From contig OY282360.1 in assembly GCA_958295675.1 (NCBI GenBank), positions 261,466 through 325,465 on the forward strand: DNA of 64,000 nucleotides, written 5' to 3'. Below are positions 2,759 through 43,330 of this stretch, one piece after another. The notes beneath the pieces are model-generated. The model saw only the letters and a program-made list of their open reading frames with translations. It searched no databases and was not told the origin of the DNA. Every line of letters starts with the position of its first letter. Position 1 is the stretch's first letter. The position numbers were made by a program, and so were the translations under genes. The DNA is from Minisyncoccota bacterium (GTDB lineage: Bacteria > Patescibacteriota > Minisyncoccia > Phycocordibacterales > JABAAK01).

Positions 2759-2889
2759 CAGTCAACAAACATGACAGGATTGTGTCGGAATTAAAAACAA
2801 TGTGAAGGTATATCGTACCTCCGGCATTATCAACATCTCGCGCGACTGTCACCCGAACATGTCATTTGTTCGTGATACAGTAAAAATAT

Positions 2890-4353: not shown

Positions 4354-4385
4354 GGTCTGAGGTCTGCTCCGCATCCTCGTTCCGA

Positions 4386-5000
4386 TTATGCTAAGACGAA
4401 TTGAACAACAAAAGACAAACAGAGGATAATCAGATAGACGGCGAGGAAAAAGGGAAGAACACACCGGATATTCTTTCTATACAACAGTTGCCGGTCAATG
4501 CGCGGCGGACTGCCGTGCATGTTCGCTTCTTTCGCGCCCGGTACACGCAGCAGCACTAAGATAAATACGATACTTAATAAAGAGAAAACAACGCTGATCG
4601 CGAACAGCCACCAGAACCACTCACCCGTGTCAGGAGCAAACCATTCCACCAAGGCGAGTATGACATTCAGCCAGGAAACAGCGAGGAGCGCGGCAAGCCA
4701 TCCGGACCACCCGATGTCATGCAGCCGCCGTACTGTGAAAGGAATAAGAATGAGAAGCGGGATGAGAATCGGAAAAAAGAAAAGAAAGTGAGACAGCAAC
4801 AGCAGCAACAGTTCGCTGAATACATATTCAAATTTCTCAGATAGGTACGCGGTATACAACGCAAAGTTTTCTGAAACGAACACAAACAGAGAGAGTGCAT
4901 AGAGTAAACAGAGAGGAGCGATACCCAGCAGTGCGGGCAGTAAGTACTCTTTTCTGCTGATCCGACCGCGGAACATGGTTGTAATGAAACGCATACACAT
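4386..5000 (-). CDS. DUF805-family inner membrane protein
   Basis: 'MFRGRISRKEY' N-terminus and 'RRLHDIGWSGW' motif typical of DUF805, with multiple TM helices. I chose the internal start at 5000 because the longer ORF listed to 5534 is antisense to the SMC gene. A TATAAT (revcomp of 5007-5012) sits 6 nt upstream of this ATG. Confidence 0.65.
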   Translation of the reverse strand: MCMRFITTMFRGRISRKEYLLPALLGIAPLCLLYALSLFVFVSENFALYTAYLSEKFEYVFSELLLLLLSHFLFFFPILIPLLILIPFTVRRLHDIGWSGWLAALLAVSWLNVILALVEWFAPDTGEWFWWLFAISVVFSLLSIVFILVLLRVPGAKEANMHGSPPRIDRQLLYRKNIRCVLPFFLAVYLIILCLSFVVQFVLA

Positions 5001-5006
5001 ACTAGT

Positions 5007-5012
5007 ATTATA
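5007..5012 (-). promoter_or_regulatory. -10 TATAAT (minus strand) 6 nt upstream of the DUF805 start
   Basis: Plus-strand 'attata' at 5007-5012 reads TATAAT on the minus strand. It is followed by 'actagt' and then the ATG. Confidence 0.3.
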
Positions 5013-5123
5013 GCGCATGCGGAGAGAGAGGCAGTTCAATAGCGCGACGGCGGTGTCAGGAATATATCCGTAGACGGAACGCAGCACCGCTATTTCGGCG
5101 CAAGTTTTTTCATAGAGAGATGC

Positions 5124-5129
5124 TACAAT
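5124..5129 (+). promoter_or_regulatory. -10-like TACAAT abutting the SMC-like gene start
   Basis: TACAAT overlaps the first ATG (5128). The second in-frame ATG at 5137 gives the canonical SMC start 'MYLKELQIEGFKSF' 7 nt downstream. Confidence 0.3.
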
Positions 5130-5136
5130 GGCGTGT

Positions 5137-7290
5137 ATGTATCTCAAAGAGCTGCAGATAGAAGGGTTTAAGTCATTCGGAAAACCGGTCACATTGTCAT
5201 TCCCGACCCGTATCACGGGCATTGTCGGTCCGAACGGATCAGGCAAGTCAAATGTGACGGAGGCATTCCGCTTCGTGCTGGGCGAACAGTCAATGAAGTC
5301 ACTGCGCGGCAGGCGGGGCGAAGATCTTATCTTCAACGGTGGTGACGGCGCGTCCCGCGCGTCCAAAGCGTCCGTACGCGTTACCTTTGATAACACTGAC
5401 CATACGCTGGACGATTCATTTGATGAGGTAACCGTGTCGCGCACCGTGCGCCGCGACGGTTCAAACGAGTACGCCGTGAACGGGACACAGGTGCGCCATC
5501 GCGATATCGTCGAGATGCTCGCCGGGGTGAACATCGGCGCGACCGGTCATCATATCATTTCACAGGGCGAGGCGGATAGTATTCTCAACGCGAGCCCCGA
5601 GGAGCGAAAAGAAATCTTAGAGGACGGGTTAGGACTGAAACTGCTCCAGTACCGCCGCGCGGAGGCGGAAAAAAAACTGGAACGCGCACGCCAGAACATC
5701 GCGGAAACGGATCTGCTGATCCGAGAGCTGACGCCGCACATGCGCCATCTGAAGCGTCAGGTGGAACGCTACAAAAAAGCGCGAGCCGTCCGCACCGAAT
5801 TGGAATCGCTGTACGCCGACTACCTCGCCCGGGAAACGCGCTACATAGCACAAACCACCGCGGAACTGGAGCCGCGCGAACACGCGCTGGCGCGCCAAAT
5901 GGCGGATGCGGAGAAAAAGGTGTCCGATGAGAAACATAGACGCGCCGGCACGAAAGACGACCTGACACCCCGCATACAACAAACAGAAAAAAAACTGGCG
6001 GCAGTGCGGGAAAAGAAAGATGCCGCGGCACGGGAATTAGGACGGGCGGAAGGCGAACACAGTGCGCTTGAGCGTCTCGGAAACACAAACACGGCGATTG
6101 AGCGGAAAAAGGTATTGGAGCTCAGGGATGACATACAGCACCGCGCGGCAGCGGCAAATCAGGAAGAACGCTCACGCCTCATTGACTACATCATCGGCCG
6201 TCTCACGGCGTTTCTCAAAACAGACGGTATAAACAGCGCAGCGCAGCGGCACGACGGCGATGCGATACGGAAAGAACAGGAGACCCTGCGGAAGACACTG
6301 GAACGCCTGAGTAAAGAAGAACAGGAGATTACCGCCGAACGCGACCGTCTGCGCGAACAACAGGAGGAGCGGATAGGCGAGATGCGGAAGTCGGAATCCG
6401 CGGTCATCGCCCTGATGGATGAAAAAGCGAAAGCGGAGCGGGAACTGTCCGACACGCGCCGCCGCCTCGCTGTGCTCAGGGAGGATGAAACGCAGTTGCG
6501 CCGCGAACTGGAGGAAGGTGCGGTACTCGTCGGTCCGAACATCTACGCGTACAAGGAGAAAAAAGTCCCGGAAACCGAGCAGCCGGAAAAGCGTGAAAAA
6601 CAGAAAGAGCGGCAGCGCCAACTGGAGCGAAAAAAAATACAACTGGAAACTATAGGGACGGACAGCGGCGAGGATGCTTTCAAAGAGCACGATGAGGTGA
6701 AGGAGCGAATGGATTTCCTCACCCGCGAGAAGGACGATCTGCTGAAAAGTATCGCCGACTGCGAGCAATGCATCAAACGCGTGCAAAAAGAGGTAGACAG
6801 CAGGTTCGCGGAGGGTATAAAAAAGATAAGCGGGGAGTTTGAAAGTTTTTTCAAAATCCTGTTCGGCGGCGGCACTGCGGCAATTATCACAGAAAAAACA
6901 AAAATAGAGAAAGACAACGGTGAAACGGAAGAGCGCATCGGCGTGGAGGTGAAAGTATCGCTCCCGAGAAAAAAAATCCGTTCGCTGAGCCAACTCTCCG
7001 GCGGCGAGCGAGCACTGGTTTCAATAGCACTCCTGTTCGCCATATCACAGGTGACGCCGCCACCGTTCCTCGTGCTGGACGAGACGGATGCCGCGCTGGA
7101 CGAGGCGAATTCACGACGGTACGCGTCCATCATTGAGGTGCTGGCGAAGCGTTCGCAATTAATACTTGTCACGCACAATAGGGAAACAATGCACTGTGCC
7201 GGCGCGCTCTACGGCATCACCATGAACGCGGCAGGTATCTCAACACTTCTGTCGGTGCAGTTTGACGAAGCGGTGCAGGTGGCGAAGTAA
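5137..7290 (+). CDS. smc: Short SMC-family ATPase (chromosome segregation SMC-like protein, about 717 aa)
   Basis: Walker A 'GPNGSGKSN'. Extended charged coiled-coil region. C-terminal ABC signature and Walker B 'LSGGERALVSIALLFAI...LVLDETDAALD', very close to canonical SMC. It is much shorter than typical SMC (about 1180 aa). The start could alternatively be 5128. Confidence 0.7.
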   Translation: MYLKELQIEGFKSFGKPVTLSFPTRITGIVGPNGSGKSNVTEAFRFVLGEQSMKSLRGRRGEDLIFNGGDGASRASKASVRVTFDNTDHTLDDSFDEVTVSRTVRRDGSNEYAVNGTQVRHRDIVEMLAGVNIGATGHHIISQGEADSILNASPEERKEILEDGLGLKLLQYRRAEAEKKLERARQNIAETDLLIRELTPHMRHLKRQVERYKKARAVRTELESLYADYLARETRYIAQTTAELEPREHALARQMADAEKKVSDEKHRRAGTKDDLTPRIQQTEKKLAAVREKKDAAARELGRAEGEHSALERLGNTNTAIERKKVLELRDDIQHRAAAANQEERSRLIDYIIGRLTAFLKTDGINSAAQRHDGDAIRKEQETLRKTLERLSKEEQEITAERDRLREQQEERIGEMRKSESAVIALMDEKAKAERELSDTRRRLAVLREDETQLRRELEEGAVLVGPNIYAYKEKKVPETEQPEKREKQKERQRQLERKKIQLETIGTDSGEDAFKEHDEVKERMDFLTREKDDLLKSIADCEQCIKRVQKEVDSRFAEGIKKISGEFESFFKILFGGGTAAIITEKTKIEKDNGETEERIGVEVKVSLPRKKIRSLSQLSGGERALVSIALLFAISQVTPPPFLVLDETDAALDEANSRRYASIIEVLAKRSQLILVTHNRETMHCAGALYGITMNAAGISTLLSVQFDEAVQVAK

Positions 7291-7400
7291 CAAGGAACAT
7301 GCAATCGGAAAGAAAAGTTATTAACACGGCGTGAAGTGAGCAAAGGCGGATTAAAGTATACTAAAATTATTAATCTATATAAAATAGATGAGTACTTGTT

Positions 7401-10400
7401 ATGTATATAACGCAAAATATTTTTTGGTCAAGAGCGACGGCATGGTGTGTCTCAATTGCAATGTTGTTTTCAGTAGTCGGTCCGGCAACACATGCGCAAA
7501 CACAACAGGAACCGCCGGAGCAACAGGCAGAAGCACCGCCGGAGCGTGTGTCGGACGATGATGAAGAGGAAGAAGAACCTGCAGAGCAGGAGGAAGAACA
7601 AGAGGAAGATGAGGAAGAGGAAGTAGTACCGACGGCAACACTTAGCGGTCTCACGGTCTCAGAAACCAATCTCAACGAGCCGTTTGACGCGGAGACAACT
7701 GCCTACACTGCCGATGTAGCGAACACTATTGAAACAGTAACCGTCAGCGCTACACCGACGGACGACACCGCGACGGTCACCTACGATCCGACCGATGCCG
7801 ACACGGAAGAAGAGGGACATCAGATCGCGCTCACGGAAGGGGAGAATACGGTAACGGCGGAGGATGCCGCCGCAACACAGACCTACATCCTGACGGTGAC
7901 CAGAGCTGCGGAAGAAGAACCTGTAGAGGAAGAGAGTGAACCCGAGGGTGACGATGCTACTGAACCCGCCGATGACACGACAAATGAGCAGGCGGATGAC
8001 GAAGAGGAGGAATCAAACGAAGATGGAGAGGAAGAAGGTGAGGAGGAAAACGAAGAACAGGAGGAGAGTGAAGAGGAAGAAGAACCTGTAGAGCAGGAGG
8101 AAGAGGAACAAGAAGAAACAATAACACCACCAACGCTCAACGGTCTCACGGTTTCGGACACCAATCTCAACGAACCGTTTGACGCGGAGACAACTACCTA
8201 CACCGTTGATGTAGCAAATGACATTGAGAATGTGACAGTCACACCTACCGCAGACGATACGATGACAGTAGCATTCACTGACACAACGGATACCGACACG
8301 GAAGAAGAGGGGCATCAGGTCGCGCTCACGGTTGGGGAGAATACGGTAACGATAACAGTCACCGCACAAGACGGGGTAACTGCACAAACTTACATCCTAA
8401 CAATCACCAGAGCCGCCGAGGAATCTGAACATGAAGATGAAGAAGAGACAGAGGAAGAACAGGAAACACCGGAACCGACTGTGGAGCCGGCACCAGAACA
8501 ATCACAACCGGAAGCACAACGACAGCAGGCGCAACTTCCTGATGACGATACCTCGGATACGCAGGCAAATCCGAACGGTCCCCTCCTCATCGCACTAAAA
8601 CCGTCGTCCGACTCACACCGCCACGGCACCATCACCGCGGTAACGGCACTCCCCGGATCACCGACAACCGGCACGGTGATTCGGTTCACCGCATCAGCAT
8701 CATCGCTGGCGAACACGGTGGACACTGACGGCAGTACCGCAAAAACAACCGCGGCGGCAAACGACATGTTCCAGTACAACGACACCAAGTGGGTCTTTAT
8801 GGGAAACGGTGCCACCACGGTGGGCATCAGTTCGGATGTGGACGGGATTACGAATGACGATACACCGACCTTTGTGGTAAAAAGTGCTGACGGCAACACC
8901 TTCGGCGGCGGCAGAGACGATGAAGCGTTTATCGCGAAGCACGCCGGAGCATGTTCTTCGGTGACAATACCAAATAACAGTCTCAACGGTCTTAATCGGA
9001 ATCATGCTGAATATATTTTTAGATCCAGAAGCGGTTGGACAGAAATTGACAGTTTTGATATGGACCTGGATCGGGGAGGTTACAGTGCCGCAGCATCGTT
9101 TGAATTAACATCGGATGAACTTACCGCTGGAAAATACTGTTTCATTGCTTTTTACACTGATAATGGACGAGCAACAGCAAATACTAGTACCGGTCTTACG
9201 GTGACTATAGATAATTCCATAACCACACCGTCACTCAGCATATCCTCCGGCACCGGCACCGCGACACCGACGGTCACTGTTACCAACCTTGAGAATAATG
9301 CCAAAGTGCGTCTCTACACCAGTAGTAACTGCAGCACCGGCACCGCACTCGGTAGTGGCGACACCACAGTAGGAGCGTCAACCAGGGTGAACATTGATTT
9401 GACTGGACGGTCTGTCGGTGACATCTTTTACGCAAAACACACCGATGTCGCAGGTAACACGGCTTGCCGCAGCGGGGTGACGAATATTCCAGGATTGACA
9501 CTTGATCTCACCTCCGACACCGGCACTGACACCACCGACGACCATACAAGCGACACTACACCAGAGTTTACAGTGACCGGATCAACCGCATACGGCGGCT
9601 CAGCGAATAACGAAGTACGCCTCTATCATAAGAACACCGCCTGCGGCACCCTCCCGCCTGTCACGACAATCGCCGGTCTCACCGGATGGACACTCTACAA
9701 AACAACCGATGTCTCCGCTTCCTCCGTCACCTCCACAGCCGGTATCACCTCCGGCACCGCGCTGACCACCGCCGATGAGCACTGCTTCCTTGCTGTTTAC
9801 TCAGCCGACGGCTCGGCGATAACACGATACGGACAGTTGGATGTCGTTATAGACACCACCGCACCGACAATCATCCCACACATCTCACCGTCGCTGCCAT
9901 CAGGCACACCGACAAAGTTCTCGCATGCCGGTGATGTTGCGGTACCATTGGATGATTGGGAGTTCTTCGGCTCCACCGTATCTCTCTCCGCGGACGGCAC
10001 CCTCATGGCAGTTGGTGCGTCACGCGATGATGATGGTGGTACCGACAGCAACAGAGGCGCGGTGTACCTCTTTCAAAAGACAAATGGCTCCTGGGCGAAG
10101 ACCCTGAAGATCTCTGACAATGGCGGCGGCGAGGGATTACTGGATATCAATTTGAGTGATTATGACTACTTCGGCTCCGCCGTCTCCTTCTCGGGAGACG
10201 GCACCGTACTGGCAGTAGGTGCGGATGGTGACGATGACGGTGCGGTGCACCTCTTTCAAAAAACAAATGGCTCCTGGGCGAAGACCCTGAAGATCTCTGA
10301 CAATGACGGCGGTGAGGGATTACTGGATATCAATTTGGGCGACAATGACAACTTCGGCTCCGCCGTATCTCTCTCCGCGGACGGCACTGCACTGGCAGTG

Positions 10401-13400
10401 GGTGCACACGATGACGATGGACGATACAACAACAGAGGTGCGGTCTACCTCTTTCAAAAAACAGACGGTGTATGGGCGAAGACCCTGAAGATCTCTGACA
10501 ATAGCGGCGGCGAGGGATTACTTAATATCGATTTGAGTAGAAGTGACGACTTCGGCTCAGCCGTCTCCTTCTCGGGAGACGGCACCGTACTGGCAGTAGG
10601 TGCGGATGGTGACGATGAAGGCGCGGTGTACCTCTTTCAAAAAACAAATGGCTCCTGGGCGAAGACCTTGAAGATCTCTGACAATGACGGCGGTGAGGGA
10701 TTACTGGATATCAATTTGAGCATATTTGACAACTTCGGCACCGCCGTATCTCTTTCCGCGGACGGCACCGCACTAGCGGTTGGTACGGGTGATAACATCA
10801 GTAGCAAAGGCGCGGTGTACCTCTTTCAAAAGACAAATGGCTCCTGGGCGAAGACCCTGAAGATCTCTGACAACGGCGGCGGCACAGAACTTTTGGATAT
10901 CAATTTGAGCGACAGTGACAGCTTCGGCTCCGCCGTCTCCTTCTCGGGAGACGGCACCGTACTGGCAGTAGGTGCGGATGGTGACGATGACGGCAACAAC
11001 AGCGACATAAATGCCAATAGAGGCGCGGTCTACACATTCGATGTCTCGCCGACTTCAACTACATCTGCGACTGTCACCGCCGTTGACACTGAAGACAGCA
11101 GCACCATGAAATATAAAAAGGTGAGTGGCACCGCCTGCACGGCGACACAGTTCGCAAGCGGTACAGGAACACCGTATGCCGAGAAGGATGCAATTACCGT
11201 CACCAGTGAAACAGATAATAACAAACGGTTTTGTTTCAGGTCGGAAGACGGAGTAGGGAATATCGGTTACGGTATCTCCGCGACAATTGCCGGTATAGAC
11301 ACCACCGCACCGACACTTATTGCTTTCAAAATAGGCACCGGCAGTACCGCGACCTATAAAGTCAGTGCCACGGACAACTCACCCGTCACCGGCAAGACCA
11401 AGGATAATATCGCAGCAGGCAGCTGTACCGACACGACCACAACCGACAACACCTGGACCAGTTACACCCCCGGAACAGAATCCGTCACAGCACACGATGA
11501 CAACGGCAGGTGCATCATTGTTATTGACGCGGCAGGGAACAAGAAAGCACAGCACCTATCGGATAGTGATAACAGCTATCAGACACCGTCCGCAGCGGTG
11601 ACCGGCATAAATTTGCAGGACGGCTCTGATACCGGAGCGGATAATGACAATATCACCTCCGACACCACCGCGCCGGTGATTGAATTTACAGCAACCGCAA
11701 GTGCCACGACAACCGGACGGTGGAGAAAACAGGACGGAGAGTGGAGTTCAACAACCGCCACCACCAATAGCGGCACTGTCACCACCACCCGAACCTACAC
11801 CCTCCCAAACCTGACAGGCGGTGACGGTGTATATGAGGTGGAGATAACACAAACTGAATCGGGGGAACCGGCAAACCCAACACTCTACACATTCACATTG
11901 GACACGAAAGCACCTACCGTGATACCTTTCACTGTCGCTCCCACTCCGGGCGACATTAACTACCTTGGTATTGACGACAGTATCACAGCCTCATTTCTCT
12001 TTAATGAGTCTATGGCAGTGTCACCGGTACTTACCGGAAAGTTCATCAACGACGAGACGGATATTCCAGCATCAGGAGGCAATCATCACACCATCACCGC
12101 CGTTCGCTACGACGCGACGACACAAACCCTCACACTTACCGTCAGGGATGCGGGACCTGATGTCGCCGTGGGTAACTTAAAGTATCAGATTACCAACGGC
12201 GCAGCAATCACTGACATAGCGGGCAACGCTCTCGGTACGCAGACCCGCACGATGTCTATCGACGATACGGCAATAGATACGACAAAACCCATACTCACCT
12301 CCACCAGAGTGGGTACCAGCAGCACCGCAACCTACATAGTCACCGCCACGGACACCTCACCCGTCACCGGAAAAACAAAAGACAATGTCATCTTGACAAA
12401 CTGTACTGACACCACAACCACCGATAACACATGGACATATTACACATCTGGAGAATATACCGGCACGGCAGACAACACCAATGGCAGATGTGTTATCATC
12501 ACGGACGCGGCAGGAAACAAGAAAGCACAGCATCTCTCAGACAGTGATAACACTGTGACGAGTGTTCCTATACTGACACTTGATCTCACCTCCGACACCG
12601 GCACTGACACCACCGACGACCATACAAGCGACACTACACCAGAGTTTACAGTGACCGGATCAACCGCGTACGGCGGTTCCGCGAACAACGAAGTACGCCT
12701 CTATCATAAGAACACCGCCTGCGGTACCCTCCCGACCGACATCACGACAATCACTGCACTCACCGGATGGACACTCTACAAAACAACCGCTACCTCCGCT
12801 ACCTCTTCCACTACCACAACCGGTATCACCTCCCAAACCGCGCTGACCACCACCGACGACCACTGTTTCCTTGCCATCTACTCAACCGACGGCTCAGCGA
12901 TAACACGATACGGACAACTTGATGTCGTCATAGACATCACTGCACCGACAGTCATCCCACACATCTCACCGTCGCTGCCGTCAGGCACGCCGACGAAGTT
13001 CTCACGCGCCGGTGATGTTGCGGTACAATTGGATAGTGGTGACGAATTCGGCTCCGCCGTATCTCTCTCCGCGGATGGCACCCTCATGGCAGTTGGTGCG
13101 TCACACGATGATGGCACCGACAGCAACAGAGGTGCGGTCTACCTCTTTCAAAAAACAAATGGCTCCTGGGCGAAGACCCTGAAGATCTCTGACAATGACG
13201 GTAGTGAAGGATTGCTGGATATCAATTTGAGCAACGGTGACAACTTCGGCTCCGCCGTATCTCTCTCTGCGGACGGCACCATACTGGCAGTCGGTGCGGA
13301 TGGTGACGATGACGGTGCGGTGTACCTCTTTCAAAAAACAAATGGCTCCTGGGCAAAGACCCTGAAAATCTCTGACAATGGCGGTGGCGAGGGATTACTG

Positions 13401-16400
13401 GATATTGATTTGAGTGCAGGTATATTTGACAATAATTTCGGCTCCGCCGTATCTCTCTCTGCGGACGGCACCGCACTGGCGGTTGGTGCGGATGGTGACA
13501 ATAACAATGACGGTGCGGTCTACCTCTTTCAAAAATCAGGCAACACATGGGCAAAGACCCTGAAAATCTCACACACCGGTGATGTTGCGGTACCATTGGA
13601 TGATTGGGACTTCTTCGGTTCCGCCGTGTCTCTCTCTGCGGACGGCACCACACTGGCGGTTGGTGCGTCACGCGATGATGATGGCAACAACAGCAGCATA
13701 AATGCCAATAGAGGCGCGGTCTATCTCTTTCAAAAATCAGGCAATACCTGGGCAAAGACCTTAAAAATCTCCGACAACGGCGGCGGCACAGAACTTTTGG
13801 ATATCAATTTGAGCGACAGTGACAGCTTCGGCTCCGCCGTCTCCTTCTCGGGAGACGGCACCACACTGGCAGTGGGTGTGGATGGTGACAATGAAGGTGC
13901 GGTGTACCTCTTTCAAAAAACAAATGGCTCCTGGGCGAAGACCTTGAAGATCTCTGACAACGGCGGCGGTGAGGGATTATTGGATATTGATTTGAGCAAC
14001 TATGACAACTTTGGCACTGCCGTATCCCTTTCTGTTGACGGCACGCTGGTGGCAGTAGGTGCGGATGGCGATTATGAAGGTGCGGTCTACACATTCGATG
14101 TCTCGCCGACTTCAACTACATCTGCGACTGTCACCGCCGTTGACACTGAAGACAGCAGCACCATGAAATATAAAAAGGTGAGTGGCACCGCCTGCACAGC
14201 GACACAGTTCACGGGCGATACAGGAACACCATATACCGAAGGTGATGCGATTACCGTCACCAGTGAAACAGATAATAACAAACGGTTTTGTTTCAGGTCG
14301 GAAGACGGAGCGGGGAACATCGGTTACGGTATTTCTATCACTCCGAATATAGACACCACTGCCCCCACACTCACCCCCACCAAAGTAGGCATCGGCAATG
14401 CAGCGACCTACAAAGTCAGTGCCACGGATGTCTCACCACCCCTCACCGGTAGAACAAAAGACAATGTCGCCTTGGTCGACTGTACCGACAGCGCGGTAAC
14501 GACAACCTCTGCGGGCTGGTCGGATTACACTCCCGGAACAGACACCGGCACTGCCGATGACACCAACGGCAGGTGTGTCATCATCACGGACGCGGTGGGG
14601 AACAGCAAAGCCCAGCATCTCTCAGACAGTGATAATACGATAACGGGTGTTCCCGCACTGACACTTGATCTCACTTCCGACACCGGCGACACCACCGATG
14701 ACCATACAAGCGACACCACGCCCGCGTTCACGGTGACGGGATTAACCGCGTACGGCGGCTCCGCGAACAACGAAGTGCGTCTCTACCACAAGAACACTGC
14801 TTGCGGCATCCTCCCGACCGCCATCACGACTATCGCCGGTCTCACCGACTGGACACTCTATAAAACAACCGATGTCTCCGCCGCCTCTTCCACCACCACA
14901 ACCGGCATCACTTCAGGAACCGCGCTGACCACCACCGACGAGCACTGTTTCCTTGCTGTCTACTCAACCGACGGCTCGGCAATAACACGACACGGACAGC
15001 TTGATGTCGTTATAGACACCACCACGCCGACGGTCATCCCCCACATCATACCCTCCCTCCCGTCAGGCACGCCGACAAAGTTCTCGCATACCAGTGATGT
15101 CGCGGTGACACTAGATGATGATGACCGTTTCGGCAGTGCAGTTGCATTCTCTGCGGATGGCACCCTCATGGCGGTGGGTGCATACGGCGACGATGACGGC
15201 GGTACCGATAACAACAGCAATAGAGGTGCGGTGTACCTCTTTCAAAAAACAAATAGCTCCTGGGCGAAGACCCTAAAGATCTCTGACAATAACAACGGTT
15301 CAGGATTATTGGATATTGATTTGGATAATAGCGACCGTTTCGGCACTACCACCTCCCTTTCCGCTGACGGCACCATGCTGGCAGTGGGTGCGTACGGCGA
15401 CGATGACGGTGGCACCAACCGAGGCGCGATCTATCTCTTTCAAAAAACGGGCAATACCTGGGCGAAGACCTTAAAAATCTCCGACAACGCCGGTGGTTCA
15501 GGATTGTTGGATATCAATTTAAGTGATTATGACCGCTTCGGTCGCGCTGTCTCCCTTTCCGCCGACGGCACCATGCTGGTAGCGGGTTCGTACGGTGACG
15601 ATGACGGCGGTACCACGAGCGACCGTAACAGAGGTGCGGTCTATCTCTTTCAAAAAACAGGCGATACCTGGGCAAAGACCTTAAAAATATCCGACAACGG
15701 CGGCGGTGAGGGATTATTGGACATCAATTTGGACAACAATGATCGCTTCGGCGTCGCTGCCTCTCTTTCCGCCGACGGCACTATGTTGGCAGTGGGAGCA
15801 TACTATGATGACGATGGTCATGCAAGTGTTGACAGAGGCGCGGTCTACCTCTTTCAAAAAACAAACGGTACCTGGACGAAGACCCTGAAAATCTCCGACA
15901 ATGATGACAGTGAGGGATTATTGGACATCAATTTGGACAACAATGATGAATTCGGCAACGCCATCTCCTTTTCCGCAGACGGTACCATGCTGGCAGTGGG
16001 TGCACACGATGACGATGACGGTGGACAACACAATAACAGAGGCGCGGTCTACCTCTTTCAAAAAACAGGCGGTACATGGGCAAAGACCTTAAAAATCTCC
16101 GACAACGATGGCGGCAAAGAACTATTGGATATCAATTTGCGCAACCATGACTTCTTCGGCTCCGCCGTCTCCTTCTCGGGAGACGGAACCATGCTGGCGG
16201 TGGGAGCAGATCATAATGATGACGGTAGCAGTAACAGCTATGAGAGAGGCGCGGTCTACGCATTCAGCGTATCGCCGAAACTGACCGCTTCCGCGACGGT
16301 CACCGCCGTTGACACTGAGGACAGCAGCACGATGAAATATATGAAAACTACCGGCACCTCCTGTACATCCGCGCAGTTTGCGGGCGGCACAGGAACACCA

Positions 16401-17774
16401 TATACCGAAGGAGACGAGATTACCGTCGCCACTGAAGCGGACAACAACAAACGGTTTTGTTTTAAGTCGGAAGACGGAGCAGGGAATAGCAGTTACGGTA
16501 TCTCCGCCGTCCTGAACATAGACACCACTGCCCCCGTGCTCACCCCGATCAGAACGGGCACCGGCAGCACCGCGACCTACATAGTCACTGCCACGGATGT
16601 CTCACCGCCCCTCACCGGAAAAACAAGAGATAATATCGCCTCGGGAAGCTGCACCGACACCCTCTACACCTTCCTCACCAGTTACTTTTGGTCGGACTAC
16701 ACCCCCGGAACGAATGTTGGCACCGCAGACGACACCAACGGCAGGTGTGTCATCATCACGGATGCGGCAGGCAACAGCAAAGCCCAGCATCTCTCGGACA
16801 GCGACAACACGATTGAGAGCGACTTCACCCTGGACATCACCGGCAACGACACCGCCAACTATCTGGATGCCATTGTCCACTACTATTACGCGCAAAACCC
16901 GAGCGATGAGTCAGCGGGCGGTGCGGTCATGGCGAATTTCATCAATGCAAACGACTCACCGGCGAAGACAGGGACCCCGATCACCACGGCAACTATCTAC
17001 ACAACGATGCAGGATTCCGCCACGACGCGTGATTTCACCGGCAACGGCACGGCAAACTATCTGGATGCCATTGTTCACTACTACTACGCGCAGAACCCGC
17101 TCGATCAGTCAGCGGGCGGCGCAGTTATGGCGAACTTTATCAACGCGAACGACTCACCGGCGAAGACAGGGGTTCCGACCACCACGGAAGCTATCTACAC
17201 GCTGCTTCAAGGATTAGGGGGGAGATCGGGCGATTCTTCCGATAGAATCGCGGTTTCCACATCCGCCGTTATCCAGGACTTTTCGGATGGCAGTAACCAA
17301 AAACTCTATGAGTTTACCATTGCCGCGGATGATGCAGGTGATGTCTATCTCGGTCAGGTTGCCCTCACATTCACCGGTGCACACAGTAAGCTCGGCACGG
17401 TGAATATTCGTCGCGGAACATTAACCAGTTCGCCTGTGGTTGCTTCAGGATCTCCTGCTTCAGAACCTGTGAAATTCCCGTTCACCAATGTTGAGACCAT
17501 TGATTCCGGTGAATCGGTAACATTCTCAGTAACCGCTCCTGTGTCCGGTGTCGCTGACGACGAATCTATCACGATTGAGCTTGCTGCAGACAGTGAACCG
17601 ACTGCTGCGAATAAAGTTGGTCAGGAATTCACAGATGCGAAAGATGACTTCAACTTTGTCTGGTCGCCGAATTCGTTAGATAACGAAGGTGCGATAAGTA
17701 ACAACGCCGACTGGTTCTCCGGTTGGGCTGTCTTTGACGATGTTGAGGGCTGGACAAGTGACGAGGATAACTAA
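7401..17774 (+). CDS. Giant secreted surface protein G1 (3457 aa): signal peptide, acidic stalk with 2 cadherin-like domains, Ig-like domains, three FG-GAP beta-propeller modules, C-terminal tandem dockerin-like modules plus a unique 186-aa tail
   Basis: Uninterrupted 10.4-kb ORF with signal-like N-terminus 'MYITQNIFWSRATAWCVSIAMLFSVVGPATHAQ'. Cadherin-like units follow the pattern 'LSGLTVSxTNLNEPFDAETTxYTADVAN..VTV..TPTDD...EGENTVTITVTAxDGVTxQTYxLTxTR'. FG-GAP blades repeat as 'FGSAVSLSADGTxLAVGA..DDDG..RGAVYLFQKTNGSWAKTLKISD'. Confidence 0.85.
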   Translation: MYITQNIFWSRATAWCVSIAMLFSVVGPATHAQTQQEPPEQQAEAPPERVSDDDEEEEEPAEQEEEQEEDEEEEVVPTATLSGLTVSETNLNEPFDAETTAYTADVANTIETVTVSATPTDDTATVTYDPTDADTEEEGHQIALTEGENTVTAEDAAATQTYILTVTRAAEEEPVEEESEPEGDDATEPADDTTNEQADDEEEESNEDGEEEGEEENEEQEESEEEEEPVEQEEEEQEETITPPTLNGLTVSDTNLNEPFDAETTTYTVDVANDIENVTVTPTADDTMTVAFTDTTDTDTEEEGHQVALTVGENTVTITVTAQDGVTAQTYILTITRAAEESEHEDEEETEEEQETPEPTVEPAPEQSQPEAQRQQAQLPDDDTSDTQANPNGPLLIALKPSSDSHRHGTITAVTALPGSPTTGTVIRFTASASSLANTVDTDGSTAKTTAAANDMFQYNDTKWVFMGNGATTVGISSDVDGITNDDTPTFVVKSADGNTFGGGRDDEAFIAKHAGACSSVTIPNNSLNGLNRNHAEYIFRSRSGWTEIDSFDMDLDRGGYSAAASFELTSDELTAGKYCFIAFYTDNGRATANTSTGLTVTIDNSITTPSLSISSGTGTATPTVTVTNLENNAKVRLYTSSNCSTGTALGSGDTTVGASTRVNIDLTGRSVGDIFYAKHTDVAGNTACRSGVTNIPGLTLDLTSDTGTDTTDDHTSDTTPEFTVTGSTAYGGSANNEVRLYHKNTACGTLPPVTTIAGLTGWTLYKTTDVSASSVTSTAGITSGTALTTADEHCFLAVYSADGSAITRYGQLDVVIDTTAPTIIPHISPSLPSGTPTKFSHAGDVAVPLDDWEFFGSTVSLSADGTLMAVGASRDDDGGTDSNRGAVYLFQKTNGSWAKTLKISDNGGGEGLLDINLSDYDYFGSAVSFSGDGTVLAVGADGDDDGAVHLFQKTNGSWAKTLKISDNDGGEGLLDINLGDNDNFGSAVSLSADGTALAVGAHDDDGRYNNRGAVYLFQKTDGVWAKTLKISDNSGGEGLLNIDLSRSDDFGSAVSFSGDGTVLAVGADGDDEGAVYLFQKTNGSWAKTLKISDNDGGEGLLDINLSIFDNFGTAVSLSADGTALAVGTGDNISSKGAVYLFQKTNGSWAKTLKISDNGGGTELLDINLSDSDSFGSAVSFSGDGTVLAVGADGDDDGNNSDINANRGAVYTFDVSPTSTTSATVTAVDTEDSSTMKYKKVSGTACTATQFASGTGTPYAEKDAITVTSETDNNKRFCFRSEDGVGNIGYGISATIAGIDTTAPTLIAFKIGTGSTATYKVSATDNSPVTGKTKDNIAAGSCTDTTTTDNTWTSYTPGTESVTAHDDNGRCIIVIDAAGNKKAQHLSDSDNSYQTPSAAVTGINLQDGSDTGADNDNITSDTTAPVIEFTATASATTTGRWRKQDGEWSSTTATTNSGTVTTTRTYTLPNLTGGDGVYEVEITQTESGEPANPTLYTFTLDTKAPTVIPFTVAPTPGDINYLGIDDSITASFLFNESMAVSPVLTGKFINDETDIPASGGNHHTITAVRYDATTQTLTLTVRDAGPDVAVGNLKYQITNGAAITDIAGNALGTQTRTMSIDDTAIDTTKPILTSTRVGTSSTATYIVTATDTSPVTGKTKDNVILTNCTDTTTTDNTWTYYTSGEYTGTADNTNGRCVIITDAAGNKKAQHLSDSDNTVTSVPILTLDLTSDTGTDTTDDHTSDTTPEFTVTGSTAYGGSANNEVRLYHKNTACGTLPTDITTITALTGWTLYKTTATSATSSTTTTGITSQTALTTTDDHCFLAIYSTDGSAITRYGQLDVVIDITAPTVIPHISPSLPSGTPTKFSRAGDVAVQLDSGDEFGSAVSLSADGTLMAVGASHDDGTDSNRGAVYLFQKTNGSWAKTLKISDNDGSEGLLDINLSNGDNFGSAVSLSADGTILAVGADGDDDGAVYLFQKTNGSWAKTLKISDNGGGEGLLDIDLSAGIFDNNFGSAVSLSADGTALAVGADGDNNNDGAVYLFQKSGNTWAKTLKISHTGDVAVPLDDWDFFGSAVSLSADGTTLAVGASRDDDGNNSSINANRGAVYLFQKSGNTWAKTLKISDNGGGTELLDINLSDSDSFGSAVSFSGDGTTLAVGVDGDNEGAVYLFQKTNGSWAKTLKISDNGGGEGLLDIDLSNYDNFGTAVSLSVDGTLVAVGADGDYEGAVYTFDVSPTSTTSATVTAVDTEDSSTMKYKKVSGTACTATQFTGDTGTPYTEGDAITVTSETDNNKRFCFRSEDGAGNIGYGISITPNIDTTAPTLTPTKVGIGNAATYKVSATDVSPPLTGRTKDNVALVDCTDSAVTTTSAGWSDYTPGTDTGTADDTNGRCVIITDAVGNSKAQHLSDSDNTITGVPALTLDLTSDTGDTTDDHTSDTTPAFTVTGLTAYGGSANNEVRLYHKNTACGILPTAITTIAGLTDWTLYKTTDVSAASSTTTTGITSGTALTTTDEHCFLAVYSTDGSAITRHGQLDVVIDTTTPTVIPHIIPSLPSGTPTKFSHTSDVAVTLDDDDRFGSAVAFSADGTLMAVGAYGDDDGGTDNNSNRGAVYLFQKTNSSWAKTLKISDNNNGSGLLDIDLDNSDRFGTTTSLSADGTMLAVGAYGDDDGGTNRGAIYLFQKTGNTWAKTLKISDNAGGSGLLDINLSDYDRFGRAVSLSADGTMLVAGSYGDDDGGTTSDRNRGAVYLFQKTGDTWAKTLKISDNGGGEGLLDINLDNNDRFGVAASLSADGTMLAVGAYYDDDGHASVDRGAVYLFQKTNGTWTKTLKISDNDDSEGLLDINLDNNDEFGNAISFSADGTMLAVGAHDDDDGGQHNNRGAVYLFQKTGGTWAKTLKISDNDGGKELLDINLRNHDFFGSAVSFSGDGTMLAVGADHNDDGSSNSYERGAVYAFSVSPKLTASATVTAVDTEDSSTMKYMKTTGTSCTSAQFAGGTGTPYTEGDEITVATEADNNKRFCFKSEDGAGNSSYGISAVLNIDTTAPVLTPIRTGTGSTATYIVTATDVSPPLTGKTRDNIASGSCTDTLYTFLTSYFWSDYTPGTNVGTADDTNGRCVIITDAAGNSKAQHLSDSDNTIESDFTLDITGNDTANYLDAIVHYYYAQNPSDESAGGAVMANFINANDSPAKTGTPITTATIYTTMQDSATTRDFTGNGTANYLDAIVHYYYAQNPLDQSAGGAVMANFINANDSPAKTGVPTTTEAIYTLLQGLGGRSGDSSDRIAVSTSAVIQDFSDGSNQKLYEFTIAADDAGDVYLGQVALTFTGAHSKLGTVNIRRGTLTSSPVVASGSPASEPVKFPFTNVETIDSGESVTFSVTAPVSGVADDESITIELAADSEPTAANKVGQEFTDAKDDFNFVWSPNSLDNEGAISNNADWFSGWAVFDDVEGWTSDEDN
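7626..7904 (+). repeat. Cadherin-like beta-sandwich domain 1 of G1 (carries a 5-codon in-frame deletion relative to paralogous units)
   Basis: 'ENTVTAEDAAATQTY' here versus 'ENTVTITVTAEDGVTVQTY' in the other copies. Confidence 0.6.
8127..8411 (+). repeat. Cadherin-like beta-sandwich domain 2 of G1
   Basis: Same about 95-aa unit flanked by poly-Glu/Asp linkers. Confidence 0.6.
9930..11045 (+). repeat. FG-GAP beta-propeller module A of G1 (about 7 blades, near-identical at nt level)
   Basis: Tandem about 180-bp units contain 'ggcgcggtctacctctttcaaaaaacaaatggctcctgggcgaagaccctgaagatctctgacaatg'. Confidence 0.65.
12990..14100 (+). repeat. FG-GAP beta-propeller module B of G1 (about 9 blades, with an internal restart of the propeller-start motif)
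   Basis: The propeller-start motif 'AGDVAV(P/Q)LD..FGSAVSLSADG' appears at 13000 and again at 13570 ('HTGDVAVPLDDWDFFGS'). Confidence 0.6.
15090..16265 (+). repeat. FG-GAP beta-propeller module C of G1
   Basis: Blades 'RFGxAxSLSADGTMLAVGAYGDDDGG..RGAVYLFQKTG.TWAKTLKISDN', more diverged than modules A and B. Confidence 0.6.
16821..17211 (+). other. C-terminal tandem dockerin-like calcium-loop modules (2 x about 62 aa) of G1
   Basis: 'DITGNDTANYLDAIVHYYYAQNP..AGGAVMANFINANDSP' occurs twice. 'D-x-T-G-N-G-T-x-N-Y-L-D-x-x-x-x-x-Y' aligns to the dockerin F-hand loop/helix 'D-V-N-G-D-G-x-V-N-x-x-D-x-x-x-L-x-x-Y'. The module is conserved at the C-terminus of G1-G6. Confidence 0.5.
17212..17771 (+). 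other. Unique 186-aa C-terminal extension of G1 ending '...NADWFSGWAVFDDVEGWTSDEDN'
   Basis: Present only in G1. A 60-bp relic of its end survives untranslated downstream of G2 (22330-22427). Confidence 0.5.
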
Positions 17775-17868
17775 GGTGTAGTGAGTTCTGTCGGTGCCGA
17801 GGATGGTTGATATATGCGTGATGTGTTTTTTGTGCATACACATATATTATTCTGTTACCATACAATAC

Positions 17869-18009
17869 ATGGAATATAGTATTTCTCAGATAATAGTACT
17901 TGGTGTGATAATAGGCGGAGCAATATGCGTGAGATTGCTTATCCAACGGATAAGAAGAAAAATGATAAAAAAATTACTTACGAACTTGAGAAAGAATATA
18001 CTGAGATAA
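17869..18009 (+). CDS. Small conserved single-TM protein (46 aa), copy 1
   Basis: 'MEYSISQIIVLGVIIGGAICVRLLIQRIRRKMIKKLLTNLRKNILR' has one TM helix and a basic tail. A paralog at 22501-22644 differs by conservative substitutions and a 1-codon in-frame indel. Confidence 0.4.
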   Translation: MEYSISQIIVLGVIIGGAICVRLLIQRIRRKMIKKLLTNLRKNILR

Positions 18010-18094
18010 TTGGACAGGTGCGCAGTGTGATGTTGCGCGATAGCAAAAGCAGATGATACGGCAACGGACATATTCGACACACTGCATACGCTGG

Positions 18095-18181
18095 CAGGGA
18101 GGTAGGATTATCCACCTCCAATACATGATGTGATAATATAACAAGTATACTACCCATGTGTACAGCACAGGTATAGGTAGT
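18095..18181 (+). promoter_or_regulatory. Conserved promoter/5'-leader cassette upstream of G2 (degenerate copy)
   Basis: 'taggattatccacc...gataatataacaagtatactacccatgtgtacagcacaggtataggtagt' then ATG. Homologous to the cassettes at 23125, 34478, 37381 and 43331. Confidence 0.5.
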
Positions 18182-21100
18182 ATGTATATAACTAAAAAAT
18201 TCTTTCTCACACGATGTATCGCACTGTGGGTGATACTCGCGCTGATGGTAACACTCATTCCGACCGCTCCGTATGCGGTCGGTCAGGAAGAAAAGAAACC
18301 TGATGGGGGGGGTACGACAGATACACCGCAGGAAACACCGAATCAACAGCAGGCAGAAGCGCCACCGGAGCGTGTGTCGGACGATGATGAAGAGCAGGAA
18401 GAACCTGCAGAGCAAGAGGAGAGTGAGGAAGAGGAAACACCGGCACCAACGCTCAGCAATCTCACGGTCTCGGACACCAATCTTAACGAGCCGTTTGACG
18501 CGGAGACAACTGCCTACACCGCCGATGTGGCGCATACTAGTGAAACAGTAACAATCAGCGCGACACCGACGGACGACACCATGACCGTCACCTACGATCC
18601 GACCGATGCCGACACGGAAGAAGAAGGACAGCAGGTCAATCTAACAGAAGGAGAGAACACCGTAACGATAACAGTAACAGCAGAGGACGGGGTAACGGTG
18701 CAGACCTACACCCTAACGATCACCAGAGCGGCGGAAGAGCCGAGTGAACCCGAGGATAGTGAAGAAGAGGAAGAAGAATCTGTAGGGGGAGAAAATGAGG
18801 AAACAGAGGAAGAGGAAGAAACACCGGAACCGACTGCAGAACCGGCACCGGAACAACCGCAGCCACAAGCACAACAGCAACAGCAGGTACAACTTCCTGA
18901 TGATGACGACACCGCGGGCACGCAGGCATACACAGCACCGACAGGCGCGCTGACCCTTGACCTGAAAACCGACAGTGACAGCGGATCAAGTACCACGGAC
19001 GACATCACCAAAAACACCTCACTCACCTTCACTGTTTCAAGCGGTGCGAATTTTGGCGGTACGGATAGTAGCAATGCCAGTACAGTGGGTATGATTTATA
19101 AAAATGAAGGTTGCAGCAGCGGGACAGCGATACCGGCAGATGGCACGAATTGGGGACATTCGAGCAACAATAATGGTTTCCATAATGATTTGCCCGTTGC
19201 ATGGAGAAACAGCGCGACGAAAGAATCTACAGGTACCCCGGCAACAAGTTTTGATGTAACATTTGATATAGCAGGGAAGCCGTGGGGATCTTCCAGTCTC
19301 ACAGTGCCAACGGTTACGGACGGCGTGAAATGCTTCATCGCCGCGTTTTTTGCCGGCGATACCGCAACTGTGTCCAGCAGTAACACCAGTGCCGGTCTTG
19401 AGGTAACCATAGACACAACGGCGACTACCCCGTCACTCAGCATATCCTCCGGTGCCGGCTCCGAGGCACCAGTCGTCGCCATTACCAACCTTGAGAGTAA
19501 CGGCAAGGTGCGTCTCTACACCGATAGCGACTGCAGCGCAAGCAACGCGCTCGGCAGCGACGACACCTCGGTGGGAGCGTCAACGACCACCGCGAGTATC
19601 ACCCTGAGCGGACGGTCTGCCAGTGATACTTTTTACGCGAAGCACACCGATGTCGCGGGCAACACGGCCTGCAGCAGCAGCGGGGTATCAAATGTTTCCG
19701 TGCTGACACTTGATCTCACTTCCGACACCGGCGACACCACCGACGACCGCACCTCCGACACCACACCCGCGTTCACGGTGACGGGAGAAACCGCGTATGG
19801 CGGCTCCGCGAGCAACGAAGTACGCCTCTACCACAAGAACACCGCCTGCGGCATCCTCCCGACCGACATCACGACCACCACCGGTCTCACTGACTGGACA
19901 CTTTACAAAACAACCGATGTCTCCGCCTCCCCCGCCGTTACCACCACAACTGGCATCACCTCCGACACCGCGCTGACCACCACCGACGAACACTGCTTCC
20001 TCGCTGTCTACTCATCCGACGGCTCGGCGATAACCCGATACGGACAGTTGGATGTCGTTATAGACACCACCGCACCGACAATCATCCCCCGTGTCGCGCC
20101 GTCCTATCCGTCAGGCACACCGACCAAGTTCTCGCACGCCGGTGATGTCGCGGTGACATTGGATAATCGTGACTTCTTCGGCTCCGCCACCGCTCTCTCA
20201 GCGGACGGCACGCTGATGGCGGTGGGGGTACTGAGCGACGATGACGGCGGCAGCGACAGAGGCGCGGTGCACCTCTTTGAAAAAACAGATGCCACATGGA
20301 CGAAAACCCTGAAAATCTCCGACAACAACGGCGGCACAGAACTTTTGGATATCAATTTGGATAACAGTGACGCTTTCGGCACCACCGTCTCCCTCTCAGC
20401 GGACGGCACCCTGCTGGCGGTGGGGGCAGATAGTGACGACGACGGCGGCGGCGGCAACAAAGGCGCGGTCTATCTCTTTGAAAAAACAAGCACCGGGTGG
20501 GCGAAGACCTTGAAGATCTCTGACAATGCCAACACTGCAGGACTCTTGGATATCAATTTGGATACCGGTGACCGGTTCGGCAGCGCCGCTGCTCTCTCGG
20601 CAGACGGCACCGCACTGGCAGTGGGGGCGATCTACGACGATGACGGCGGCAGAAATGCCGACCGAGGCGCGGTCTATCTCTTTGAAAAAACAAGCACCGG
20701 GTGGGCGAAAACCCTAAAAATCTCTGACAACGACGGCGGCACAGAACTTTTGGATATCAATTTGGATGATGATGACGACTTTGGCATATCGGTTGCGCTC
20801 TCCGCGGACGGCACCGCACTTGCCGTCGGTGCGAAGTCAGACGATGACGGTGAAGCCGTCATAATCAGAAGAGGAAGAGGAAGAACAATATATGATACCG
20901 ATACCGACCGAGGCGCGGTCTATCTCTTTGAGAAATCAGACGGTACCTGGGCGAAGACCCTGAAAATCTCCGACAACGACGGCGGGAGTGCGGGACTCTT
21001 GGATATCAATTTGGACGTCGGTGATCTCTTCGGCAACGCCGTCTCCCTTGTGGCGGATGGCACCCTGCTGGCGGTGGGGGCACAGGACGACGATGATAAC

Positions 21101-22270: not shown

Positions 22271-22500
22271 GGAGATGCGAAACGGATGCACCGCGCCGCG
22301 GTAAATCAGAAGAACATTGAGCGGCTGTTGCAGAATGCTGATTGGGCTGTCTTTAACGACGATGATGTTGAGGACCGGACAAGCGACGAGGATAACCAAA
22401 GCGCAGTGAGTCCTGTCGGTGCCGAGGATCGTTGACATATACACATGATGTGTTGTTTGTACATACACACATGTTATTCTATTACCATACAATACATGAC

Positions 22501-33574: not shown

Positions 33575-33674
33575 GGAGATGCGAAACGGATGCACCGCGG
33601 TACGCGGAGTGTATTGCTGCATGGAATCATGGAATAAGGAATGTAGATAGGTACGATATCGGAAGCATGCTATA

Positions 33675-34477: not shown

Positions 34478-34555
34478 AAAATTGTCCACCTGTAATAAAT
34501 AATGCGATAATATAACAAGTACACTGTCTATGTGTACAGCACAAGTATAGTTAGT
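34478..34555 (+). promoter_or_regulatory. Conserved promoter/5'-leader cassette upstream of G4
   Basis: 'aaaattgtccacctgtaataaataatgcgataatataacaagtacactgtctatgtgtacagcacaagtatagttagt' then ATG. Confidence 0.5.
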
Positions 34556-37380: not shown

Positions 37381-37476
37381 CAGTGCACCTTGGCGGGGAG
37401 GTAAGATTGTCCACCTGTAATAAATAATGCGATAATATAGCAAGTATACTGCTTGTGTGTACAGCACAGGTATAGT
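37381..37476 (+). promoter_or_regulatory. Conserved promoter/5'-leader cassette upstream of G5
   Basis: 'ccttggcggggaggtaagattgtccacctgtaataaataatgcgataatatagcaagtatactgcttgtgtgtacagcacaggtatagt' then ATG. The stem here is GTATAC/GTGTAC, which is a U-G wobble if transcribed. Confidence 0.5.
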
Positions 37477-43254: not shown

Positions 43255-43330
43255 TTGTAGTGCCGGAAAAGACGATCGGGCAGTACACCTTGGCGGGGAG
43301 GTGGGGAAGAGTAGCACTGTCTCGGGATAG

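Follow-up and report, generated by a model that had tools for sequence, protein, structure and literature searches.

We analysed a 64,000-nucleotide (nt) stretch of the genome of a Minisyncoccota bacterium (contig OY282360.1, positions 261,466 to 325,465), hereafter the window, which carries an array of genes for giant, predicted secreted proteins (G1 to G8). A propeller module is repeated within G1 and occurs again in G2. The array is probably an old modular multigene family that has been shuffled and patched by short-tract non-allelic gene conversion, with no wholesale concerted evolution. The copies of the module have a mosaic structure, two of the three short patches that differ between two strains carry the alleles of paralogous modules, and the architecture is stable in two assemblies.

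A preliminary description of this DNA had placed the module three times in G1 and once in G2. This was borne out, since the motif LTLDLTSDTG starts at 9495, 12573, 14658, and 19703, and self-alignment of the window indicated that the modules are real and align end to end. The two genes and the four modules are as follows.
7401-17774, forward strand: G1, 3457 amino acids (aa), predicted secreted, from the list of open reading frames (ORFs) and its translation.
18158-22270, forward strand: ORF of G2, the likely true start being the ATG at 18182; the protein, P0001, has 1362 aa.
9495-11573, forward strand: module A, with a Big_13-like domain, six FG-GAP blades (9966-11039), and two immunoglobulin-like (Ig-like) domains, Ig1 and Ig2.
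12573-14636, forward strand: module B, blades at 13047-14096.
14658-16808, forward strand: module C, blades at 15129-16265.
19703-21853, forward strand: module D, in G2, blades at 20177-21322.

Each module is 2.06-2.15 kb long and consists of a weakly Big_13-like domain, a linker (PSLPSGTPTKFSHAGDVAV), six FG-GAP_2 repeats, and two Ig-like domains. Besides the three modules, G1 has a signal peptide, acidic linkers, and two cadherin-like units; its C-terminal part is a twin repeat with, beyond it, a tail of 182 aa peculiar to this protein. Pfam FG-GAP_2 matched 17 stretches of G1 (E=7.5e-113). FG-GAP (PF14312) scored above its gathering cut-off of 23 in both proteins (G1, 369 bits in 17 stretches; G2, 124.5 bits in 6 stretches), as did Cadherin-like (PF12733; cut-off 24.2) with 89 bits in G1 (E=2.8e-25) and 72.5 bits in G2. 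No NCBIfam family was matched by G1 or G2. A Pfam match to AnfO_nitrog in blade C1 (15174-15281, G1 residues 2592-2627; 33.1 vs 30.3 bits) is almost certainly a false positive, because it is a 36-residue match to a glycine/aspartate-rich blade loop.

The fold of module A was predicted with AlphaFold (AF2) from a 16-sequence alignment, with a mean predicted local distance difference test (pLDDT) score of 79.8. The propeller and the two Ig-like domains reached a pLDDT of 80-94, and the Big-like domain was poorly predicted. When the model was compared with the PDB using Foldseek, the best matches were the ectodomains of the integrin alpha chains alphaM, alphaX, and alpha4 (E=5e-16). Six FG motifs were found per propeller, with an N-terminal hairpin as a possible seventh pseudo-blade.

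A HMMER scan of 1.84 billion representative proteins yielded P0152 and P0223, which are pieces of G1 and G2 from another assembly. The corresponding locus of this sister strain, L004 (ENA ERZ19488997 contig_4, 23.9 kb), served as an independent second assembly. It is collinear with window positions 2017-18927 in a single alignment (98.6% identity, 7 small gaps) and then with 19400-21393. L004 agrees with the window in its three modules, in the six blades of each propeller, and in a start motif in the middle of propeller B.

Subsequently, the degree of identity among the module copies was examined. The modules had been described as near-identical; over their whole length, however, they are only 76-82% identical at the nt level and 73-80% at the aa level. 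The A-B pair has 82% nt identity, the C-D pair 79.5%, and the remaining pairs about 76%, and BLAST gave 73-79%. A further claim, that stretches of more than 150 bp are almost identical, is too strong: the best stretches reach 94-96% over 150-250 bp, and none of them is fully identical, the longest exact match being 116 bp. This match lies within the top A-B tract, 11025-11275 against 14082-14332 on the forward strand (251 bp, 94.0%), which takes in the end of the last blade together with Ig1. At their starts, modules A and B are 96% identical over 150 nt, including 94 bp of exact identity. The C-D pair shares a 345-bp tract of 92.8% identity (16247-16588 and 21304-21645), and the best A-D tract is 134 bp long at 94%.

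These values bear on strong concerted evolution, according to which frequent recombination keeps the modules near-identical and drives rapid length and antigenic variation. Several observations agree with it: local tracts of 94-100% identity, among them three blades of propeller A and a twin repeat of G6; a number of cadherin-like units that ranges from 0 to 4 among the paralogues; and conversion patches in a block otherwise devoid of substitutions. At the scale of the module, however, synonymous divergence (dS) ranges from 0.22 to 1.19 by domain, the maximum being in the cross pairs; these values exceed, by a factor of two to ten, the dS of 0.11 found between the strains in the flanking genes. 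The 11 copies of Ig2, the last Ig-like domain, are 69-84% identical across the array; they are not grouped by gene, and their nearest neighbours are mostly from other genes. Hence, there is no wholesale homogenisation within G1, yet mosaic tracts are present. Furthermore, modules are about 100% identical to their counterparts in the sister strain and only about 80% (76-82%) to their paralogues within the genome, the reverse of the classic pattern. Module and blade numbers were also unchanged between the two assemblies, which speaks against rapid length variation, although two strains are a weak test of it. We therefore regard strong concerted evolution as improbable, and the earlier statement that the identity is maintained only by frequent recombination is not supported by copies that differ by a dS of 0.2-1.2.

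Recombination between the copies, by comparison, is supported by uneven synonymous divergence, by permutation tests, and by the strain patches described below. The dS values of the two closest pairs are as follows.
Modules A and B: Big-like 0.24, propeller 0.50, Ig1 0.22, Ig2 0.93.
Modules C and D: Big-like 0.30, propeller 0.82, Ig1 0.24, Ig2 0.36.

These values differ about fourfold among the domains of one module pair. Site patterns in the quartet favoured AB|CD (123 sites) over the two alternatives (30 and 37 sites), and the minority patterns occurred in runs, chiefly in Ig2 and at alignment columns of about 150-450. We also permuted the polymorphic sites in the manner of GENECONV and scored runs of concordance for the six module pairs. 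The runs were significant for A-B and C-D (P<=2e-4) and for A-C (P=0.003). When only third codon positions were used, A-B (P=0.002) and A-C (P=0.004) were still significant after correction for six pairs.

Pure duplication and divergence, in which no recombination occurs and the patches of high identity reflect purifying selection and codon bias on conserved motifs, would be in line with the low ratio of nonsynonymous to synonymous divergence (dN/dS) of 0.12-0.44 throughout, and with the fact that the best-conserved tracts encode motifs such as LTLDLTSDTG and VTAVDTEDSSTMKY. It is contradicted by the concordance runs at third codon positions alone, by the fourfold variation in dS and the clustering of minority tree patterns, by the strain-specific patches that carry paralogue alleles, and by a tract in G6 identical at 170 of 171 positions and flanked by position-specific sequence. 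We thus consider this explanation very improbable.

The comparison with the sister strain provided direct evidence of patching. To the left of G1, the two strains differ by 2.96%, with a dS of 0.11-0.12 in PurF and SMC, and G2 differs by 2.3-2.6%. Between them lies a block that lacks this background divergence. The block, two patches within it, and a replaced cassette beyond it are as follows.
7246-18450, no strand assigned: block of zero background divergence, 11.2 kb, extending from the G1 promoter through the entire gene into the first ~290 nt of G2.
12603-12767, forward strand: patch P2, within module B (Big-like domain), with sub-tracts at 12603-12623 and 12749-12767.
14699-14780, forward strand: patch P3, within module C (Big-like domain), where 82 bp contain 13 substitutions.
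18927-19400, forward strand: first of the Big-like domains of G2; the sister strain has another, unalignable cassette in its place (L004 16915-17310).

Apart from a few indels, the block differs from L004 only by one singleton substitution (15000) and three patches. Thirty of the 31 substitutions over 11.2 kb fall within about 500 bp (P about 1e-29). In P2, L004 has bases of the C/D type, including a 3-bp deletion. In P3, L004 reads A/B-like and the window D-like; there L004 is 94% identical to module B of the window and 86% to the allelic module C. Taking P2 and P3 together, 18 of 23 substitutions carry the allele of another module, as against a null expectation of 0.14 (P=1.2e-11). Such short tracts with paralogue alleles between unchanged flanks point to non-allelic gene conversion, in agreement with the permutation tests within the window. 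The other five substitutions are private alleles found in no paralogue, all of them synonymous third-position C>T changes, which argues for real sequence and not for mis-polishing. As for G2, the cassette that L004 carries there is closest, among window sequences, to the corresponding domain of G5 (38203-38685, 77%). The block itself suggests recent recombination between strains, a gene-specific sweep of an adhesin allele, or a strain-mixed consensus.

Several points weigh against conversion as the source of the patches. The third patch, P1 (11441-11690), has 7 substitutions (2.8%), which resembles ordinary strain divergence; its part P1b (11666-11690) has no paralogous donor in the window, and we therefore rejected it as a conversion tract. 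Neither for P2 nor for P3 was an exact donor found, the best candidate being 94% identical; they may have been copied from beyond the window, or else represent older polymorphisms. L004 is also noisy, with five frame-breaking single-base indels, and mis-polishing of repeats could mimic conversion. Finally, the databases searched contain only two strains: a cluster look-up traced G1 to two sources, the window genome and L004, and exact-protein look-ups with the window proteins P0001, P0032, P0003, and Fic gave no further strain contigs. An assembly artefact, in which the repeat structure or the apparent patches would result from the collapse or mis-polishing of repeats or from a consensus that mixes strains, is highly unlikely: these frameshifting indels, the end of the L004 contig inside propeller D, the origin of the related genomes from long-read metagenome assemblies, and the occurrence of a zero-divergence block within 3% flanks, which could be a stitched consensus of two strains, are outweighed by a second, collinear assembly that gives the same 10.4-kb G1 between different flanks, by private synonymous alleles absent from every paralogue, and by mosaic signals inside the window that are independent of that assembly.

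We next consider the propellers, whose individual blades had been reported as near-identical. This applies to blades A2, A4, and A6 only, whose identity is 94-95%; they share exact runs of 59-72 bp, with exact repeats at 10169/10922, 10179/10560, and 10560/10932. The odd blades A1, A3, and A5 are 77-84% identical, the remaining blades of A and B mostly about 75-92% (range 67-92%), and the blades within C and within D about 75%, mostly 72-83% (range 68-83%). Two propeller features were mapped.
9966-11039, forward strand: propeller A, three copies of a two-blade unit with a 381-bp period, from the blade matrix and TRF.
13566-13690, forward strand: second start motif in propeller B, chimeric, at the junction of blades B3 and B4; also present in the sister strain (P0152).

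TRF gave 2.7 copies of the 381-bp period with 85% matches. The even blades of propeller A appear, from this pattern, to have been homogenised further on top of the copying of two-blade units. The best blade matches between A and B are off-register (A4-B5, 92%; A5-B4, 88%).

The second propeller-start motif (ISHTGDVAVPLDDWDFFG) inside propeller B was confirmed at nt 13566, where the sequence agrees with the start of propeller A at 105/119 nt (88%) and with the start of B itself at 82%. Upstream of the B3/B4 junction, there is a normal blade end (WAKTLKIS); downstream, the sequence is start-like and nearest to the A start. The join falls where the codons for TKFS and for LKIS are alike. The preliminary description had taken this motif for a scar of unequal crossover. 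Simple unequal crossover is insufficient, because it would change the number of blades, yet B still has six. The motif instead seems to replace a structurally equivalent segment between blades, and segment replacement, or compensated duplication and loss, fits the blade pattern better than a single unequal crossover. Blade composition would thus turn over within the propellers while the number of blades is held at six.

The number of cadherin-like units varies from 0 to 4 among the paralogues, as had been stated: G1 has 2, G2 1, G3 2, G4 0, G5 1, G6 3, and G8 4. The first unit of G1 does contain an in-frame deletion; it comprises, however, 12 bp or four codons (ITVT), and not five codons.
7641-7910, forward strand: cadherin-like unit 1 of G1, with the 12-bp deletion at 7847/7848.

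The deletion lies between two copies of a 9-bp direct repeat, ACGGTAACG, a position expected for slippage. It occurs in the window strain only, and the sister strain lacks it.

All of G1 to G6 carry twin 66-aa repeats at the C-terminus.
54188-54583, forward strand: twin repeats of G6; 54191-54361 and 54389-54559 are identical at 170 of 171 positions.
16830-17225 (G1), 21875-22270 (G2), 33179-33574, 36965-37360, and 42865-43260: the equivalent twins.

The G6 tract appears to be the cleanest recent conversion in the window. In G5, the tracts 42868-43037 and 43066-43235 are 95.9% identical, and both repeats have gene-specific residues in common, for example NDQPTGG...DFPVKTGSP. Within-gene identity of the core tract from G1 to G6 was 85, 92, 91, 84, 95, and 99.4%, and identity between genes was about 86%, whether or not the positions matched. 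Homogenisation within a gene was accordingly found only locally, in the core tract of four of the six genes (91-99% vs about 86%). At their 3' ends, G2 and G3 share 427 bp of 94% identity (21869-22295 and 33173-33599), extending 25 bp beyond both stop codons, and the domains directly upstream are of wholly different kinds. From this pattern, a C-terminal cassette would be shared between two otherwise unlike genes.

The conserved twin repeat reads …TGNGTANYLDAIVHYYYAQNP… (21866-22267 and equivalents, G1-G6), and a divergent repeat, …NDAIMHYIYEVF…, occurs in P0163 from related organisms. No Pfam family matched the 134-aa C-terminus at E<=1. The label 'dockerin' was discarded, as it has no Pfam support and the D-x-T-G-N-G-T resemblance is by eye only. 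The twin repeat may be a lineage-specific anchoring or sorting domain. The 182-aa tail beyond it is found only in G1 (17226-17771) and is matched by no Pfam family. The loss of one base at 17239 cuts this tail off in L004 as a separate 124-aa ORF.

Taken together, these findings are consistent with the following course of events for a family patched by short-tract conversion. Its members would have been built from a shared set of domains, namely a cadherin-like sandwich, a Big_13-like domain, an integrin-alpha-like propeller of six FG-GAP repeats, two Ig-like domains, and the twin C-terminal repeat. The 2-kb propeller module would have been duplicated long ago, giving the tree ((A,B),(C,D)), with the tail of G2 as the paralogue of the tail of G1, and purifying selection (dN/dS 0.1-0.4) would have acted on the copies as they diverged. 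Despite this divergence, homologous recombination among the copies would repeatedly replace stretches of about 20-250 bp in one of them by those of another, from blade to blade within a propeller, between the modules of G1, between G1 and G2, and from one twin C-terminal repeat to the other. Small in-frame indels would be added by slippage at short direct repeats, and whole-domain cassettes would occasionally be swapped. Such copying seems frequent enough to be caught between two strains with an otherwise identical G1. We infer that the enzymatic route is RecA-type repair from a paralogous template. The giant proteins are predicted surface adhesins for attachment to host cells, and the patchwork would alter their binding or antigenic properties.

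In the window, housekeeping genes (NusB-NUDIX, RNase III, PurF-like, and SMC-like) are followed by an uninterrupted run of giant genes on the forward strand. At least eight such genes, all for predicted secreted proteins, account for about 7% of the 725-kb genome (source contig 724,510 bp). Those beyond G1 and G2 are as follows.
23201-33574, forward strand: G3.
34532-37360, forward strand: G4.
37453-43254, forward strand: G5.
43409-54583, forward strand: G6.
56127-60329, forward strand: G7.
From ~60.5 kb to past the end of the window, forward strand: G8.

G7 is unlike the other giants, in that it is without cadherin-like units or a propeller and has Big_13 and a C-terminal PG_binding_1 domain, the latter suggesting attachment to peptidoglycan. 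A Fic/DOC-family gene (Fic_N and Fic; 54871-55941) stands alone between G6 and G7. On the reverse strand, a long DUF805 ORF (4386-5534) overlaps the start of the SMC-like gene; only 191 aa are called in the sister strain, which has a 5-bp deletion at 5084-5088, within this ORF. The true DUF805 start thus probably lies further downstream than the first in-frame start codon. An Rfam scan of both strands of the window gave zero matches.

The organism is, judging by the size of its contig and the relatives of its RNase III, a reduced-genome bacterium of the Candidate Phyla Radiation (CPR)/Patescibacteria type. Among named relatives, this RNase III is nearest to a protein of Candidatus Kaiserbacteria (59% identity). 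The closest relatives (61-63%) are encoded on two circular-looking contigs of 641 and 831 kb, L001 and L002 (ENA ERZ25072670), which keep the NusB-NUDIX / RNase III (/ SMC) neighbourhood. The giant-gene array is absent from their syntenic region, which made them unusable as an outgroup, and the array would be a lineage-specific expansion. No close relatives of the module were found in GTDB genomes and Joint Genome Institute (JGI) metagenomes, and a search of genome contigs with PurF, meant to place the organism taxonomically, gave no match either. Related proteins with the same order of Big_13-like domain, six-blade propeller, Ig1, Ig2, and twin C-terminal repeat occur in other uncultured organisms, and one of them, P0154, has three tandem propellers.

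The propeller of integrin alpha classically has seven blades. The present modules resemble integrin alpha in their FG-GAP_2 repeats and in a predicted propeller followed by a thigh-like Ig domain, as in alphaM, alphaX, and alpha4. They differ in having six detectable FG-GAP repeats, about 12% sequence identity, no beta subunit, and several propellers per chain. Silent-cassette systems of the pilE/pilS, vlsE, tprK, and MgPa type have one expression site and promoterless, truncated donor cassettes. Antigenic variation of this kind was rejected for the array, as every one of G1-G6 and G8 is an intact ORF that possesses a signal peptide and an upstream region of its own, both similar among the paralogues. 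In Helicobacter pylori, patchy copying occurs between the expressed paralogous adhesin genes babA and babB. The cagY repeats of the same species undergo in-frame rearrangement in a surface-protein gene (PMC2194252). The present family shares with these adhesin families in-frame rearrangement and patchy copying among expressed paralogous surface-protein genes; it differs in belonging to an uncultured, reduced-genome bacterium, with tracts seen in only one strain pair.

In periscope proteins (SasG/Aap, Rib/alpha C, and the SHIRT arrays of Sgo_0707), tandem domains are highly identical at the DNA level and repeat number varies between close strains (PMC8201768). Like the giant proteins, which are predicted to be secreted, these are secreted bacterial surface proteins with tandem folded domains, whose DNA similarity permits intragenic recombination. 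Here, however, the unit is a multidomain one of 700 aa at 76-82% identity and is built around a propeller, whereas the periscope unit is a rod-forming stalk domain. Only the three A blades and the G6 twin repeat come near the identity of periscope repeats, and the window and L004 have equal repeat numbers, two strains again being a weak test.

The closest genomic analogue is Giant1-5 of Apilactobacillus kunkeei, a set of consecutive genes for giant extracellular proteins that takes up about 6% of a small genome (PMC12863079). Divergence along these genes is very uneven, with short intragenic recombination events, and some pairs of strains of different groups are nearly identical across one giant gene (PMC12863079), which matches the 11.2-kb zero-divergence block observed here. 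Recent conversion was not found between the paralogous giant genes of A. kunkeei, which are less than 20% identical (PMC12863079); in the present array, by contrast, paralogues with modules of 70-95% identity exchange tracts, and the domains and the phylum are different.

We advance only tentatively, as an unlikely extension, that the eight-gene array serves an ultrasmall episymbiont as a dedicated system for varying its attachment to the host. The expressed paralogues would donate sequence to one another in segmental conversion of the Big-like and propeller surfaces, and successful G1 alleles would sweep between strains by homologous recombination. Conversion would outpace point mutation in such a system; at least three tracts lie in 11 kb without background substitutions.

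Gene conversion among the repeats of bacterial surface proteins is already well documented, and the present findings involve no new mechanism; what they add is direct evidence from strains of a CPR organism. For the recognition and holding of host cells by CPR bacteria, surface proteins are the leading candidates, and their evolution is barely known. The locus described here offers a concrete, testable case, in which about 7% of a small genome is spent on modular integrin-like proteins whose architecture is stable while short segments are exchanged between copies and between strains.

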